Below, in pieces: positions 3,565 to 8,626 of a DNA stretch of 64,000 nt. Every line of letters starts with the position of its first letter. Position 1 is the stretch's first letter. The notes beneath the pieces were generated by a model. That model was not told the origin of the DNA and did no database searches. It saw nothing but the letters and a program-made list of their open reading frames with translations. Made by a program: the position numbers and the translations under genes. Location of the stretch: sequence record PV805638.1, one strand, 5' to 3'. Source of the DNA: a phage.

Positions 3565-3822
3565 GTGATTATTACATTCCCTGCAACTAAATCATTTAAC
3601 TATATGGGACAAACTATTGAAGTCCCATTATGGGTTAAATATGTAGCCTTATTACCTCGACCACAGAAGAGTAAAAATGCCTCACTAATTGGATTTAGTA
3701 GAAAGCCTAAGCTGACTGAAAACTGTATTTGGAAGTCCAGTGGCAGACAAGAGGAAATTGGTTTTTGTGACTACGTACCTCAACCGAATACAGTATATCT
3801 AACCCTGGAGAAAGTAGAGTGA
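3565..3822 (+). CDS. hypothetical protein (GTG start)
   Basis: ORF 85 aa, GTG immediately after previous stop. Confidence 0.45.
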   Translation: MIITFPATKSFNYMGQTIEVPLWVKYVALLPRPQKSKNASLIGFSRKPKLTENCIWKSSGRQEEIGFCDYVPQPNTVYLTLEKVE

Positions 3823-4133
3823 ATAACATTGTAGTAGTACATGATAATACATTTACTGATGTCGATAAGATGATGCGTAATATTGATTACGTATCTCAGA
3901 CTAGTAAAGCATTCAACGAAGAGTTCACTATCTATTGTGAACCAGAATCACCACTGGTTTCTGTATTAAAAGAAGCAGGTCTACCCTTCTCTACAGAGAA
4001 CTTCCCGGAGGAGCCAGAGTATATGATTACATTCATATATGACTTACATGATGGCTCTCCTGCCAGTGAACTAGCTATGAACCAGTGGAGTAGTAAACGT
4101 CCTGTATATGCTTTCCAGGTACTCAAACCATGA
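3819..4133 (+). CDS. hypothetical protein (GTG start)
   Basis: ORF 104 aa, GTGA overlap with upstream stop. Confidence 0.45.
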   Translation: MNNIVVVHDNTFTDVDKMMRNIDYVSQTSKAFNEEFTIYCEPESPLVSVLKEAGLPFSTENFPEEPEYMITFIYDLHDGSPASELAMNQWSSKRPVYAFQVLKP

Positions 4134-4372
4134 TCTATGAAGAATATTATGTATTCAAAAAGGGAGATGATTTTATAGCTATGCCTGATAATTACAGGGG
4201 TTGGCATACAACTCCTGTATTAAAGGAAGCATTTTCCGTACCTAACCTGGAAGAGGTTAATAAAGTAATGAACGGGGTAATGCTAACAAGAGGTATGGCT
4301 TACAAAATAGACGCATTAGAAGGAGCTTCCGTATGCAAAGTAACTACATCCATTGAGGTAGTTAAACCGTGA
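4130..4372 (+). CDS. hypothetical protein
   Basis: ORF 80 aa, ATGA overlap. Confidence 0.45.
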   Translation: MIYEEYYVFKKGDDFIAMPDNYRGWHTTPVLKEAFSVPNLEEVNKVMNGVMLTRGMAYKIDALEGASVCKVTTSIEVVKP

Positions 4373-4749
4373 AAACTATCTCATTAGGTGATAACACCAA
4401 TGCTTTGATGGGTGTATCCGCACGTCCAATTACCATTGTTAATAAACATCACGGTAAATCCGGTGAGTATATTGGGCGTGGCTCACCGTTAGGCAATCCA
4501 TTCGTCATTGGTAAACATGGAACCAGAGAGCAAGTAATTGCTAAGTATAAGGTCTGGCTACAAGAACAGATTGATAAAGGCAATCCAGTTGTACTGGATG
4601 AACTCAATCGTCTTGGTAATAAAGCCATTGATGAAAAAGGTCTGGCCTTACAGTGCTTCTGTTATCCAAAACCATGTCATGGTGAGGTTATTAAAGAGAA
4701 GCTAGTAAAGGCTATGTATAACTACTTTGTAGAAAATCCAAAAGGGTAA
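4369..4749 (+). CDS. DUF4326-family protein
   Basis: GRGSPLGNPF ... LQCFCYPKPCHGEVI matches the DUF4326 signature from memory. Confidence 0.6.
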   Translation: MKTISLGDNTNALMGVSARPITIVNKHHGKSGEYIGRGSPLGNPFVIGKHGTREQVIAKYKVWLQEQIDKGNPVVLDELNRLGNKAIDEKGLALQCFCYPKPCHGEVIKEKLVKAMYNYFVENPKG

Positions 4750-4752
4750 CTA

Positions 4753-5103
4753 ATGAAAGAGATATTCGTATTTACTACCAACATATTAGGTCAACATACC
4801 AATGCTGCTGCCAAGTTAGCTTATAAGAAGCATGGTGCTCGCTGGGGTATGGCCTACGGTCATTATGGTAATAGCTTTGCCATTCCAGTAAGGGATGGCA
4901 ATGGTAACCGAATTAAAGAGGGTGCTATCTATGGCTTCGTTGAAGGCTTTATTTCCTATGCATCTACTAATCCACAGTGGGATTTCAAAGTAATGGGAGA
5001 TGACTTTCTGGACCCATACCTGTTCAATAATGTTACTGGCAATGTACTGTTACCAGAAGCATGGCGTAAACACTTAGGTGATGCTTACAACTACTGGTCA
5101 TAA
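4753..5103 (+). CDS. hypothetical protein (possible Rossmann-like fold)
   Basis: ORF 116 aa; FVFTTN...G...AA motif; family not recognised. Confidence 0.5.
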   Translation: MKEIFVFTTNILGQHTNAAAKLAYKKHGARWGMAYGHYGNSFAIPVRDGNGNRIKEGAIYGFVEGFISYASTNPQWDFKVMGDDFLDPYLFNNVTGNVLLPEAWRKHLGDAYNYWS

Positions 5104-5387: not shown

Positions 5388-6206
5388 ATGTACTCATCTA
5401 TCGAACATCAGAAGCAGCTTGAAGTCCTATTCAATAAAAATCAATTACTGCCTCGCATGAGGAAGGAATTCGAGGACTCCAAAGAAATTGACTTTAAGGC
5501 ATTCGCTGCCTATTTAGAAATTGATTATAAGCTGCTCATTGATGCAATGGTGCAGATTGCCCTACATAAACGTGCTGACATCCAGACTATGATTGGCTCT
5601 CTTATGAGTCACTCAGATGATGCTCAGTATATCGCTGACTGTCTGTATAAGATGGCAGAGAATGACTGCTTCAACTATGACCCTACCATCGACAAGTTCG
5701 GTGTTATCTATGAGATTAGTGAAGATGTCCAGATGGAACTGGAAGCATTCCAGTATCCGTTACCTATCGTAAGTGCTCCTAATCCTGTCAGATCTAACAG
5801 GGATACTGGTTACTACCAGACTAGGGGAAGCATTATCCTCAAAAAGAACCATCATGAGATGGATGTCTGCCTTGATCACATCAACCGTATGAACAATCAA
5901 CGCCTCTGTATTAACTGGGATGTTGCTAACTATGTAAAAGATTCTCGTCCTAACATGGATAAACCCAAAGAGGGTGAAACCCGTCAGGAATATGAGAAAC
6001 GTGTTAAAGCCTTTGAGAAGTACAGTCGTACTGCTAAGGAAGTAATGGAGTTAGTGACTCAAGAAGGGAATAACTTCTCACTAGGCCACAAATACGACAA
6101 ACGTGGGCGTACCTACGCTCAGGGCTATCACATTAACTATCAGGGAACCAGCTACAACAAAGCTGTTCTGGAGTTCGCTGATAAGGAGCTGGTAAACGAT
6201 GATTAA
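5388..6206 (+). CDS. phage RNA polymerase II small subunit (T7-like RNAP N-terminal half, N4 RNAP1-like)
   Basis: 272 aa; YDKRGRTYAQG resembles the T7-RNAP D-x-x-GR motif; immediately upstream of a gene carrying motifs A/B/C. Confidence 0.6.
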   Translation: MYSSIEHQKQLEVLFNKNQLLPRMRKEFEDSKEIDFKAFAAYLEIDYKLLIDAMVQIALHKRADIQTMIGSLMSHSDDAQYIADCLYKMAENDCFNYDPTIDKFGVIYEISEDVQMELEAFQYPLPIVSAPNPVRSNRDTGYYQTRGSIILKKNHHEMDVCLDHINRMNNQRLCINWDVANYVKDSRPNMDKPKEGETRQEYEKRVKAFEKYSRTAKEVMELVTQEGNNFSLGHKYDKRGRTYAQGYHINYQGTSYNKAVLEFADKELVNDD

Positions 6207-6359
6207 TAATCGTGCAGTAGAAGACTTCTATGCTCATAGAGAGTTGGTACTGAAACGTATCAATGAAGCAATGAAACGTGAAGCAGAAGCTAAAGCTAAA
6301 CGTAACCGTAAATAAATCCAAATGCGAGCCAAGTGGCTCAAGACGCTAAGGAATACAAA

Positions 6360-6791
6360 ATGCAACTGTTAACTGCCCGTGAATACCTGAAAGTAGATAT
6401 CGCTAACAACTATGGCTTAGACAAGAAGACATGGGATGAGCGTATTAGCTGGTTCGATGAGAATGAAGCTAACCTGCTTAATCTGGTAGATGAAGCTGAA
6501 GAATCTGCATTGTTCTATGCTGGTGTAAACGCATGGAAAGATATGAAAGCCGGTAAGCCTATCGGTTATGCTGTAGCTCTGGATGCTACATCATCCGGCT
6601 TACAGCTACTGGCTTGCCTGACTGGTGACCGTTCTGCTGCTGAACTGTGTAACGTAGTTAACTACATGGGGGAGAATGGTAAGCCATTACGTCGTGATGC
6701 TTATACAGTTATCTATCACAAGATGCTGGACATCCTTGGTGAAGCATCTCGTATTAAACGTAGTGATACTAAGCAGGCCGTTAACCTATAA
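6360..6791 (+). CDS. phage RNA polymerase II large subunit (RNAP2), 5' exon / N-terminal fragment
   Basis: DATSSGLQLLACLTGD resembles T7 RNAP motif A (DGSCSGIQH); ORF stops inside the motif-B region (SDTKQAVNL*). Confidence 0.6.
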   Translation: MQLLTAREYLKVDIANNYGLDKKTWDERISWFDENEANLLNLVDEAEESALFYAGVNAWKDMKAGKPIGYAVALDATSSGLQLLACLTGDRSAAELCNVVNYMGENGKPLRRDAYTVIYHKMLDILGEASRIKRSDTKQAVNL

Positions 6792-7596
6792 GTCATGGCG
6801 GCCTTTAAACCGGGTGAACTCATGGAACATCCCTAGTGGACAATCATGAGCCAAGTTGGTAACGTAGAAAGCTCAATAAGGAGCATTCTATGTCAGAATT
6901 CAAAACGTGCAGTCGATGTAAAGAATTACTTCCTATCGAAGTATTCCCAGAGACTAAAAAAGCAATCACAGGACTCAAGACTAATTACGAGAATCGTTGC
7001 AGACCTTGCAAGGCTGCTGCTGCTCGTGAATGGCGTAAAAATAATCCCGGTTACACTGGAACTGGGATTCTTAAGGCAATACCGGAAGAGCATCGTAAAT
7101 GGTATTCAGCAGTCTCACTTAGACTGAGAGATGCAAAGAGCAGATGTAAAAAGCTCGGTAAGCCTATGCCTGATTGCACAGTAGAGTACTTATTTGAAAT
7201 CCTTAAATCACAGGAATTCAAATGTGCTTTAACTGGTGCAACCTTAGTAATTGAGTCGGGACATCCCTTGTGTCTATCATTAGACCAGATAGAGCCAAGC
7301 AAGGGATATAGTATTGATAATGTTCAATGGTTAGCTTGGTGTGTAAACCGAGCAAAGGGTGACCTTTCTACCAATGACTTTATTGATATGTGTGATGCTG
7401 TTTTGAATAACCAAAAGGTGCAGAGACTATCGAAAAGCAGCGTAAGCTGAACTTAGTAGAGTAGGCCCAAGTGGGTCGAAGCGCCCGGCTAGACTAATAG
7501 TCTAGATGATATAGTCCGAACTCACTGGTAACAGTGAGATGCAGGTAAAGCTGCTGGGGAAGATTAACGACCTTCCTTGAACATAATGTATGACTG
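6790..7596 (+). mobile_element. putative group I intron (about 0.8 kb) with HNH homing endonuclease ORF, interrupting RNAP2
   Basis: RNAP2 homology stops at 6791 and resumes at about 7590 in motif B; no RBS before the 3' part; GNRA-capped hairpin 7521..7538 and other hairpins; boundaries are approximate (+/-10 nt). Confidence 0.45.
6890..7450 (+). CDS. HNH homing endonuclease
   Basis: 186 aa; strong AAGGAG RBS; N-terminal Cys cluster and SLDQIEPSKGYSIDNVQWLAWCVNRAKGD HNH-type motif. Confidence 0.7.
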   Translation: MSEFKTCSRCKELLPIEVFPETKKAITGLKTNYENRCRPCKAAAAREWRKNNPGYTGTGILKAIPEEHRKWYSAVSLRLRDAKSRCKKLGKPMPDCTVEYLFEILKSQEFKCALTGATLVIESGHPLCLSLDQIEPSKGYSIDNVQWLAWCVNRAKGDLSTNDFIDMCDAVLNNQKVQRLSKSSVS

Positions 7597-8384
7597 CATT
7601 CTATGGTTCAGAAGCCAAGCCTAAAGAAGTATTCGGTGAAGGTATTCGTCTCAAGACTTTTGAGAATGTAATGGAAACAGTTGCTAGTGGACCTTGGGCA
7701 CTGAACAAGTTCTTACTGCAATGTGGTAACCCGGATGCTAGCCGTTACGTATGGGTACTGCCTGACAATTTCCATGCTGTCATTAAGGTCATGGTTCCAG
7801 AGGTACAGACCGTTAACTTCTTAGGTAAGCCATTCGACATCACTCGTATGGTTCAGGGTACTGAAGATAAGACTCGTATGCTCTCTGCTAACATCACCCA
7901 CTCTATTGATGGAATGGTGGTACGTGAGATGCTGCGTCGCTGTAACTTCGACATGAACCAGGTGAACTATATTAAGTCCCTCTGTGAAGGGACCAGTGAG
8001 TATATGCTGGGTACTAGCGAAAACTACGACATGGTTAGTCAACTGTGGCATAACTATGAGAAATCAGGATTCCTGTCTACCCGTATCTTTGATTATCTGG
8101 ATTCTGACTCAATTAAACTGGTTGATACAGATGTAATCATGGCTATGCTTAATACCATGCCTAAGAAACCATTCCCTGTAATGACCGTACATGACTGCTT
8201 CCGTTGTCATCCTAACTATGGCAATGACTTGCGTCGTCAGTACAATCAGATTCTGTCTGACATTGCTAAGAGTGACCTACTGGGCTTCATCCTGTCTCAG
8301 GTACTGGGGCAAGAGTTCTCTGCTGGTAAGCTGGATGACAGCCTCTGGCAGGACATCCTTGAAACGGATTATGCATTAAGTTAA
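7590..8384 (+). CDS. phage RNA polymerase II large subunit (RNAP2), 3' exon / C-terminal fragment
   Basis: AFYGSEAKPKE resembles T7 motif B (LAYGSKEFG); TVHDCFRCHP resembles motif C (HDSFGT); exon 1 + exon 2 is about 410 aa. Confidence 0.6.
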   Translation: MTAFYGSEAKPKEVFGEGIRLKTFENVMETVASGPWALNKFLLQCGNPDASRYVWVLPDNFHAVIKVMVPEVQTVNFLGKPFDITRMVQGTEDKTRMLSANITHSIDGMVVREMLRRCNFDMNQVNYIKSLCEGTSEYMLGTSENYDMVSQLWHNYEKSGFLSTRIFDYLDSDSIKLVDTDVIMAMLNTMPKKPFPVMTVHDCFRCHPNYGNDLRRQYNQILSDIAKSDLLGFILSQVLGQEFSAGKLDDSLWQDILETDYALS

Positions 8385-8392
8385 TAAACTGG

Positions 8393-8427
8393 CCTCATAC
8401 CTTCGGGTATGGGGCTTTTATTTTTTG
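8393..8427 (+). terminator. rho-independent terminator
   Basis: 10-bp GC-rich hairpin followed by TTTTATTTTTT. Confidence 0.7.
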
Positions 8428-8443
8428 CTTGGAGGTAGTCAAC

Positions 8444-8626
8444 ATGACAGACATCTATGATGTTATTACTAAAACCGTACTGATAGTTTTATCTGCTATT
8501 GTGGTATTCACTATAGCCAATATTCATAAAACCAAGTTTTCCTATTGCTACTATGGGGCATATTCTGCCGGATGTTTTGTATTAGCCGGTTGGATAGCTT
8601 ACTGGATTTACCGCATCAACAACTAG
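8444..8626 (+). CDS. small membrane protein
   Basis: GGAGG RBS before ATG 8444; two hydrophobic segments. Confidence 0.5.
   Translation: MTDIYDVITKTVLIVLSAIVVFTIANIHKTKFSYCYYGAYSAGCFVLAGWIAYWIYRINN

Follow-up and report, generated by a model that had tools for sequence, protein, structure and literature searches.

How does a phage make an RNA polymerase subunit from a gene that is split by an insertion of about 0.8 kb? This question is raised by the RNAP2 gene of sequence record PV805638.1, of which we analyzed a stretch of 64,000 nucleotides (the window; coordinates refer to it, and RNAP2, its insertion and their parts lie on the + strand). The phage is of the G7C-like, N4-like type (Schitoviridae, Gamaleyavirus), and RNAP2, the large subunit of its middle RNA polymerase, is the homolog of N4 gp16. 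Interrupted RNAP2 genes have been described before. Wittmann 2014 (PMC3915230) reported that RNAP2 of Achromobacter phages JWAlpha and JWDelta is 'divided into two parts' and questioned its function, a doubt repeated by Chan et al. 2014 (PMC4193335), and Ma et al. 2016 (PMC4837373) stated that those phages "encode two RNAP2". Amgarten et al. 2017 (PMC5418858) found a homing endonuclease inside RNAP2 of Pseudomonas phage ZC08 and made it the basis for speculation on the origin of split RNA polymerases. The reports on these phages and on Burkholderia phages HN02, HN04 and HN05 (vB_BpP) thus speak of a split gene, of two RNAP2 or of a homing endonuclease insertion, and name no intron. Our analysis leads us to conclude, with high confidence, that the segment 6782-7588 in this Gamaleyavirus-like RNAP2 gene is a group I intron with the architecture of type IA2, mobile and predicted to splice itself, and that it encodes a putative endonuclease in the loop of its P6a helix.

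The two parts of the gene are recognizable on either side of the insertion. The upstream open reading frame (ORF; 6333/6360-6791) matches the Pfam family RNA_pol (PF00940, E 1.2e-10) and positions 1-137 of PHROG 2051, and the downstream ORF (7590-8384) matches positions 138-401 (E 4e-108), so one 401-position RNAP2 family is cut cleanly at 137/138. From ATG 6360 the protein begins (MQLLTAREY) just as its PhAPEC5 and N4 counterparts do. Motif A (VALDATSSGLQ) is encoded before the insertion, and motifs B (AFYGS) and C (HDCF) are encoded after it. Among phage records, 62 match 5388-8500 at 90-95% identity, most of them Escherichia Gamaleyavirus isolates. Query coverage is at most 74% in every one of these sequenced relatives because the ~0.8-kb segment, and with it the intron, is present in none of them.

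To place the ends of the insertion, we compared the window by BLASTN with the intron-less RNAP2 genes of PhAPEC5, E20 and G7C. The alignment runs to 6783 and starts again from 7589, and its two parts overlap by 2 nucleotides ("TA") in the subject; therefore, the insertion is 807 nucleotides long and has three possible registers. In a single one of these, the base ahead of the 5' splice site is a U and the last base of the intron is a G (U6781|6782-7588|U7589). Because the alignment of the relatives and this U...G rule together allow one register, we set the junction at U6781/G7588. Exon 1 accordingly spans 6360-6781, with U6781 as its last base, and exon 2, where the alignment to the relatives resumes, spans 7589-8384. 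The predicted spliced sequence is CAGGCCGU|UAUGACUGC, in which the joined exons read GCC GU|U AUG ACU GCA UUC UAU GG (KQAVMTAFYGS), and the predicted junction peptide in the intact protein is QAVMTAFYGSEAK. The spliced coding sequence (CDS) of 1218 nucleotides encodes 405 amino acids, colinear with the 405-aa RNAP2 of PhAPEC5, and residues 1-405 of its product align with residues 1-404 of N4 RNAP2 (PDB 6dt7_B; E 3.4e-195) without a gap at the junction.

These comparisons bear out most of what an earlier sequence-only reading of this locus had claimed. That reading had described an RNAP2 gene split by an insertion of ~0.8 kb, with motif A before it and motifs B and C after it, and had suggested aligning the joined exons to N4 gp16, an alignment that is indeed restored at U6781/G7588. 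Its example of a junction, U6789 joined after G7596, has to be corrected, since it keeps the frame but lies 8 nucleotides off and is contradicted by the intron-less alleles. We also considered an intein, which is ruled out by stop codons in the RNAP2 frame three codons into the insertion and by the insertion's own ribosome-binding site and ORF.

The intron interrupts, in phase 2, the Val codon just ahead of the motif-B Met (K-Q-A-V|M-T-A-F-Y-G-S), a position inside the O-helix. At this site the intron-less Gamaleyavirus alleles read GCA GU|U (the RNAP2 DNA of PhAPEC5 and G7C is GCAGTTATGACTGC), and the window has GCC GU|U. Through this synonymous A-to-C substitution at 6779, the P1 helix of the intron gains the pair C6779-G6800. 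The substitution may have come from the donor allele by co-conversion, or it may have been selected later; in either case it fits a need of the intron, and passive insertion would not require it.

To assess whether the insertion has the fold of a group I intron, we used the Rfam model RF00028. It matched 7199-7538 with 30.2 bits (E 1.6e-5) and 6746-6999 with 17.7 bits, both under the gathering score of 50. We attribute the low scores to the 549-nucleotide P6a loop, ORF included, which breaks the match. When the ORF-deleted sequence was used in BLASTN, it found ORF-less elements of ~240-250 nucleotides that lie in DNA polymerase genes, both in T4-like phages of Aeromonas and in Pakpunavirus phages of Pseudomonas. 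The elements of AS-gz, phiAS4 and PaoP5 align with the window intron across the whole core, and they score 73.8, 69.4 and 71.9 bits, respectively, against RF00028 (gathering 50), which establishes homology of the window element to Rfam-validated introns.

Covariation provides the second line of evidence. We assembled a set of six sequences (the window, HN02, JWAlpha, AS-gz, phiAS4 and PaoP5) and entered P7 as a pseudoknot in the structure. The proposed helices pair in 94.5% of cells, compared to a mean of 75.9% for shuffled and 32-41% for slid alignments; the structure was drawn on the window sequence, which favours this percentage-paired measure and not the compensatory counts. Both sides change in 32 of the 62 pairs (4-9 when slid), and the covariation score of 0.569 versus 0.188 was reached by none of 500 shuffles. 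In a test of nine introns that share the insertion site, extended to P1 and P10, pairing reaches 98.9% of cells and compensatory changes occur in 31 of 69 pairs, as opposed to 2-5 when slid. P8 was omitted from this second test because MAFFT misaligns its replaced hairpins. All nine introns have the splice-site U·G pair, a G before exon 2, and an in-frame stop within the first few intron codons, inside the P1 loop. Four of the seven P1 pairs covary between exon and guide: exon GCG AU stands opposite guide GGUCGCC in the metagenomic contig L138, and exon GCG GU opposite GGCCGCC in contig L142. P10 is 100% paired and shows one change on both sides, from U·G in the window to A-U in contig L134 (exon A, guide U). 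Helix by helix, pairing is 92.6-100% in lineages whose protein identity has fallen to 43-57%.

The structure that emerges from these comparisons contains the elements of a group I ribozyme and makes use of both exons. P1 (6775-6804) pairs the end of exon 1 (6775-6781, AGGCCGU) with the guide at 6798-6804, placing U6781·G6798 at the 5' splice site. The loop of P1 (6782-6797) contains the in-frame stop UAA (6789-6791), three codons into the intron, and the guide half of P10 (6792-6797, GUCAUG), which pairs with the first six bases of exon 2 (UAUGAC, 7589-7594). As the P10 guide lies directly 5' of the P1 guide, the two form one contiguous internal guide sequence, 6792-6804. P2 is absent, and the spacer between P1 and P3 consists of UUAAA only. 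P3 (6810-6816, CCGGGUG, with 7482-7488) is paired in 100% of cells and has compensatory changes in three of its seven pairs. P4 (6819-6825/6844-6850) encloses P5 (6830-6832/6838-6840). P6 (6851-6852/7417-7418) and P6a (6856-6860/7410-7414; four of five pairs compensatory) both have their 3' strands within the ORF, which is carried by the 549-nucleotide loop of P6a.

The 3' half of the core begins with P7 (7425-7430, GACUAU, with 7511-7516, AUAGUC), which forms a pseudoknot with P3; its 5' strand is invariant across homologs and agrees with the RF00028 consensus AGACUA...AUAGUC. Between the 5' strand of P7 and the 3' strand of P3 lie two extra helices, P7.1 (7438-7441/7446-7449, loop GUAA) and P7.2 (7464-7468/7473-7477), both with compensatory changes. 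The P8 hairpin (7489-7494/7500-7505) has been wholly replaced yet is still paired in HN02 and JWAlpha, and it is followed by J8/7 (7506-7510). P9 (7522-7527/7532-7537, loop GUAA) has compensatory changes in all six of its pairs. P9.1 (7541-7544/7551-7554), P9.2 (7556-7562/7572-7578; four of seven pairs compensatory) and the omega-G at 7588, the last intron nucleotide, complete the element. The presence of P7.1 together with P7.2 is the hallmark of subgroup IA, of the T4 td/nrdB/sunY type, in the Michel-Westhof scheme, and under that classification we take this intron to be IA2 rather than IA1.

Together, the RF00028 matches, the absence of the segment from intron-less relatives and the covariation identify 6782-7588, at the level of sequence, as a genuine group I intron. 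The sequence-only reading had proposed a group I intron here and had pointed to a GNRA-capped hairpin at 7521-7538; the core from P3 to P7, without which that reading would have given up the former, is complete and covaries, and the hairpin is real and corresponds to P9. The covariance-model search that it suggested succeeded in part, in that RF00028 matches the 3' half but below its gathering score. Neither the Rfam gathering scan nor a search for the J8/7-P7 motif revealed a second intron of the same type in the window.

We propose that the ribozyme would fold after transcription. The guide at 6792-6804 would then pair with both exons, holding the end of exon 1 in P1 (U6781·G6798 at the splice site) and the beginning of exon 2 in P10. 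An exogenous guanosine bound by P7 would attack after U6781, and the 3'-OH of exon 1 would then attack after G7588, joining ...GCCGU to UAUGAC... in an mRNA for an intact 405-aa RNAP2. Ribosomes would be halted before the guide sequence by the in-frame UAA three codons into the intron, and the Shine-Dalgarno sequence and AUG of the endonuclease gene would be locked in a conserved hairpin. In a mixed infection, the endonuclease would most likely cut an intron-less RNAP2 gene near the motif-B codons, and repair of the cut would copy the intron in (homing).

An alternative is that a free-standing homing endonuclease gene (HEG) has inserted into RNAP2 and that each half is translated on its own, the products then combining into an active enzyme. 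Such genes in pieces have phage precedents in Aeh1 NrdA/mobE and in gp43A/B of Aeromonas phage 25 (PMC2988022), N4 RNAPII is already a heterodimer of T7-like fragments (RNAP1/RNAP2), and splitting driven by homing endonucleases has been proposed by Amgarten et al. (PMC5418858). In addition, the downstream ORF opens with an ATG at 7590, and GenBank lists two separate RNAP2 CDSs in JWAlpha and the Burkholderia phages. However, ATG 7590 is merely the conserved Met codon of motif B, is present in intron-less alleles too, and directly follows structured RNA. There is no purine-rich Shine-Dalgarno sequence upstream of it, as the sequence-only reading had also observed. The cut falls inside the O-helix, and a passive HEG would not maintain a complete group I core, compensatory changes in 31 of 69 pairs or covariation between exon and guide; moreover, the ORF-less homologs are Rfam-validated introns. 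We therefore consider it very improbable that RNAP2 is expressed in pieces, and we return to the group I intron and the gene that it carries.

The endonuclease gene (6890-7450) encodes 186 amino acids, with an N-terminal CxxC...CxxC zinc ribbon and a C-terminal PacI-like His-Me finger. It is preceded by AAGGAG at 6878-6883, and its last 26 nucleotides overlap P7 and P7.1, with the stop codon inside P7.1. Both this Shine-Dalgarno sequence and the start codon (6890-6892) are enclosed by a hairpin at 6862-6893, directly after P6a (dG -14.6 kcal/mol, z -6.98, with none of 200 shuffles equally stable). An equivalent hairpin of different sequence that pairs the start codon is found in 11 of 11 related introns, and its conservation suggests that it may regulate translation of the ORF. 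A match of the Rfam family FinP at 6859-6920 (16.1 bits, E 4.4) is spurious; it merely detects the hairpin at the ribosome-binding site, and there is no FinP homolog here.

For the identity of the encoded protein, only the PHROG match, the fold search and a profile-against-PDB search were informative. The protein matches PHROG 1035 ("endonuclease VII", E 4e-32) and several PHROGs labelled HNH, and a single-sequence search of PDB with it gave no match. At E ≤ 1e-5 we found 155 homologs, none of which has a precomputed Pfam domain, and when 31 homologs were searched against Pfam and NCBIfam, only one gave a match, a faint one to HNH_5 (E 0.17). In an alignment of 31 sequences, residues C7, C10, C37 and C40, which form the zinc ribbon, are invariant, as are S130, D132, G139, Y140, N144, Q146, W147, W150, N153, K156 and G157. 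Of these, D132, G139-Y140, N144, N153 and K156 align with the active-site region of PacI. The predicted fold has the features of the PacI-like group of His-Me fingers, namely a beta-beta-alpha fold, Asp/Asn metal ligands and an omega-loop Tyr that replaces the His. PacI itself is a His-Me finger enzyme without a catalytic His and uses an omega-loop Tyr instead (PMC5714182, PMC3384342). Given that G139-Y140 is located in a PacI-type omega-loop and that no HNH His is present, the term HNH endonuclease used in the sequence-only reading is right for the superfamily and fold and wrong for the motif and family. Its 186-aa ORF and AAGGAG ribosome-binding site were found as it described them; the HNH histidines and a match to an HNH profile were not. 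We propose that the protein is best described as PacI-like and is a putative nuclease with a predicted cleavage site in intron-less RNAP2.

The C-terminus of this protein family reflects the RNA in which it is encoded. The near-invariant peptide K-V-Q-R-L-S is encoded by AAGGUGCAGAGACUAUCG (within 7415-7450), which is at the same time P6', J6/7 and the 5' strand of P7 of the ribozyme; the tail is conserved because this RNA sequence is conserved. The tail also marks nearly all 155 homologs as residents of the same intron type.

We next consider the distribution of the element, which is sporadic. It is found at the same nucleotide of RNAP2 in Achromobacter phages JWAlpha and JWDelta, in Burkholderia phages HN02, HN04 and HN05, and also in the metagenomic N4-like contigs L134, L138, L139, L141 and L142 and contigs L130-L133. 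In JWAlpha and HN02 the boundaries read GGCCGU|UAACC...AUG|UAUGAC, and the ribozyme is 76-82% and the endonuclease 54-56% identical to those of the window, whose host genus differs, being E. coli Gamaleyavirus, unlike that of JWAlpha/JWDelta and HN02/04/05. Contigs L131 and L132 are Gamaleyavirus-like and ~93% identical to the window through exons and intron. Compared to L130, the ribozyme of the window is 96% identical in nucleotides and the endonuclease 91% in amino acids, and RNAP2 is 77% identical in amino acids and 80% in nucleotides. As the intron is more alike than the gene that hosts it, this comparison argues for lateral transfer of the intron.

A second ribozyme interrupts RNAP2 nearby. 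In contigs L137 (2369-3152) and L140 (about 1864-2800), a different, unrelated group I ribozyme is inserted 8 nucleotides downstream of the window site, after AUGACCU, and has its own matching P1 (UGACCU/GGGUCA). It is without P7.1, and its J8/7 is GAAGAUAUAGUCU. The endonucleases of L137 and L140 are nevertheless homologous to that of the window (59% and 54% identity), so the site appears to be associated more closely with the endonuclease than with either ribozyme. The endonuclease family was sampled in nine clusters, and every one of them is located between an RNAP2-N and an RNAP2-C ORF. One possible extension of these findings, which we offer tentatively, is that the intron ORF is the first example of a HEG family built on the PacI-type, His-less His-Me finger, with the invariant Tyr140 as nucleophile or activator; that this family, which has no Pfam model, is dedicated to the motif-B codons of N4-like RNAP2 and has colonised at least two unrelated ribozyme lineages 8 nucleotides apart, so that the endonuclease and not the intron would target the site; and that, as middle transcription needs RNAP2, the efficiency of splicing may time the switch from early to middle expression.

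Further elements were encountered in the same sequences. Contig L130 (GCA_026132285.1, 74.8 kb, labelled Salmonella enterica) contains, at 3800-4970, a second intron-like element deeper in exon 2 of RNAP2, with GACUAUCGAA at 3925 and AUGAUAUAGUC at 4008; an AP2/HNH_3 ORF comes next, at 4102-4746. The RNAP2-C ORF of this contig is truncated to 202 amino acids, and homology to the window resumes at 4778. The 14-mer AUGAUAUAGUCCGA, which comprises J8/7 and the 3' strand of P7, occurs in more than 120 IMG/VR viral contigs among the matches listed (loci L007-L125), and several of these contigs hold two copies; this spread suggests that related phage group I introns are numerous and for the most part unannotated. 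A scan of IMG/VR with a 30-nucleotide P7-P7.1 pattern, which proved too specific, recovered JWAlpha only.

Several points weigh against our interpretation, some of which concern the RNA and others the encoded protein. As to the RNA, both RF00028 scores are below the gathering score and a scan of the window at the gathering threshold was empty. The comparisons used a structure drawn on the window, as noted above, and ORF-deleted sequences from which we excised the P6a loop at positions of our own choosing. A sigma-70-type scan found no promoter near the start of the ORF that could free its ribosome-binding site as in T4, and splicing itself is predicted from sequence alone. It could be argued that the intron has decayed and no longer splices, leaving RNAP2 as a pseudogene and middle transcription to something else; the sub-threshold Rfam score of the window would agree with this, and both Wittmann et al. 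and Chan et al. questioned the function of the interrupted RNAP2. RNAP2 is, however, a core gene of N4-like phages (PMC4193335). Its exons in the window are intact and 94% identical to those of functional relatives, the helices remain paired at 92.6-100% across deeply diverged lineages, and the endonuclease ORF is intact in every copy examined. From these data, we conclude that a decayed intron is extremely unlikely.

As to the protein, it has no family match of its own in Pfam or NCBIfam, the 31-sequence alignment contains no invariant histidine, the motif being S-L-D-Q/K instead of D-H, and the sequence match to PacI is weak (E 0.022, profile against PDB). One could therefore suppose that the ribozyme splices while the ORF is inactive, a maturase-like or DNA-binding remnant in an intron that is only vertically inherited. 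The replacement of the canonical D-H by D-Q/K and the lack of an HNH match in Pfam or NCBIfam are in favor of this, and within the His-Me superfamily two groups that lack the His are regarded as inactive (PMC5714182). On the other hand, the invariant residues align with the PacI active-site region, where Tyr replaces His, the family is strongly conserved over 155 homologs, and the sporadic distribution and the discordance between intron and exons imply recent mobility. We consider an inactive ORF the less probable reading, and favor a mobile intron with a probably active, PacI-like endonuclease.

The features of this intron can be compared with those of known systems. Aeromonas phage 25 has intron 25.g43B in its DNA polymerase gene, which has been described as a group I intron (PMC2993671). 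The lineage of that intron (AS-gz, phiAS4 and Aes phages) and the Pakpunavirus introns (PaoP5, K5 and K8) have a core homologous to that of the window intron, at 66-77% nucleotide identity, and share its P3-P9.2 helices, P7.1 and P7.2 among them. They differ in lacking an ORF, in residing in DNA polymerase genes and in having a longer P1/P2, whereas in the window intron P2 is missing and P6a holds an ORF. In PaoP5 (L126 1419-1760) and ~35 other Pakpunavirus genomes, this ORF-less group I intron splits the DNA polymerase gene, for which the records annotate two CDSs ('part II'); an opposite-strand hypothetical ORF over the 3' end of the PaoP5 intron is probably spurious.

The I-TevI/II/III-type phage introns resemble the window intron in that they interrupt essential genes for nucleotide or nucleic-acid enzymes at conserved active-site codons, loop out an endonuclease ORF and sequester its ribosome-binding site in a hairpin (PMC2988022). 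The window intron differs from them in its host gene, an RNA polymerase, in its PacI-like His-Me finger (I-TevI and I-TevII are GIY-YIG enzymes and I-TevIII is a canonical HNH enzyme), and in that no late promoter was found inside it. PacI (PDB 3ldy/3m7k; His-Me finger group 20) is a type II restriction enzyme that is chromosomally encoded, forms a homodimer and has a site of 8 bp, whereas the window protein is intron-encoded, has a different N-terminal half and is linked to PacI by the weak sequence match mentioned above. In phage Aeh1, a HEG (mobE) likewise splits a conserved region of an essential enzyme gene, nrdA; there, no ribozyme is present and the halves are translated separately, unlike in the window, where a complete covarying group I core flanks the ORF. 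There are also reports or suspicions of group I introns in other genes of N4-like phages (td in pVa5; gp24, DNAP and gp43 in Vibrio phages). In the literature open to search, which left most subscription journals outside, we found no paper that names the RNAP2 interruption an intron, consistent with the suspicion, voiced in the sequence-only reading, that introns had not been described in N4-like RNAP genes.

The surroundings of the gene were also compared among relatives. The RNAP1 ORF (5388-6206) matches PHROG 2166 (E 2e-117), and the spacer that separates it from RNAP2 (6207-6359) is variable. In G7C this spacer (L003 1321-1902, gp15.1) holds a free-standing HNH homing-endonuclease gene, and in E20 (L001 1312-1703) it holds two small ORFs. 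In the window it is only ~150 nucleotides long; the spacer HEG of G7C is absent and the intron HEG is present. Directly 3' of the RNAP2 stop codon, at 8391-8416, is a strong hairpin resembling an intrinsic terminator (11 pairs and a T-run), the counterpart of terminators that the annotations of PhAPEC5, PhAPEC7 and JWAlpha place behind RNAP2 or gp16.1.

These findings bear on how the genomes of this family are read. If the interruption of RNAP2 is a splicing intron, a normal RNAP2 is to be expected, which answers the question that Wittmann 2014 and Chan 2014 raised about the function of the interrupted RNAP2 of JWAlpha and JWDelta. Many Schitoviridae genomes list two RNAP2 CDSs and a "hypothetical protein" where one joined CDS and an intron ORF should be annotated. 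The catalogue of phage group I introns gains a single-subunit-type RNA polymerase gene, cut in the catalytic O-helix, in keeping with the rule that the most conserved codons are the targets of such introns. The intron also provides a candidate enzyme from a compact, unclassified family of PacI-like nucleases, probably with a long conserved target. The element is thus an ordinary kind of mobile intron, and it explains the "broken" polymerase gene that earlier phage papers left unaccounted for.

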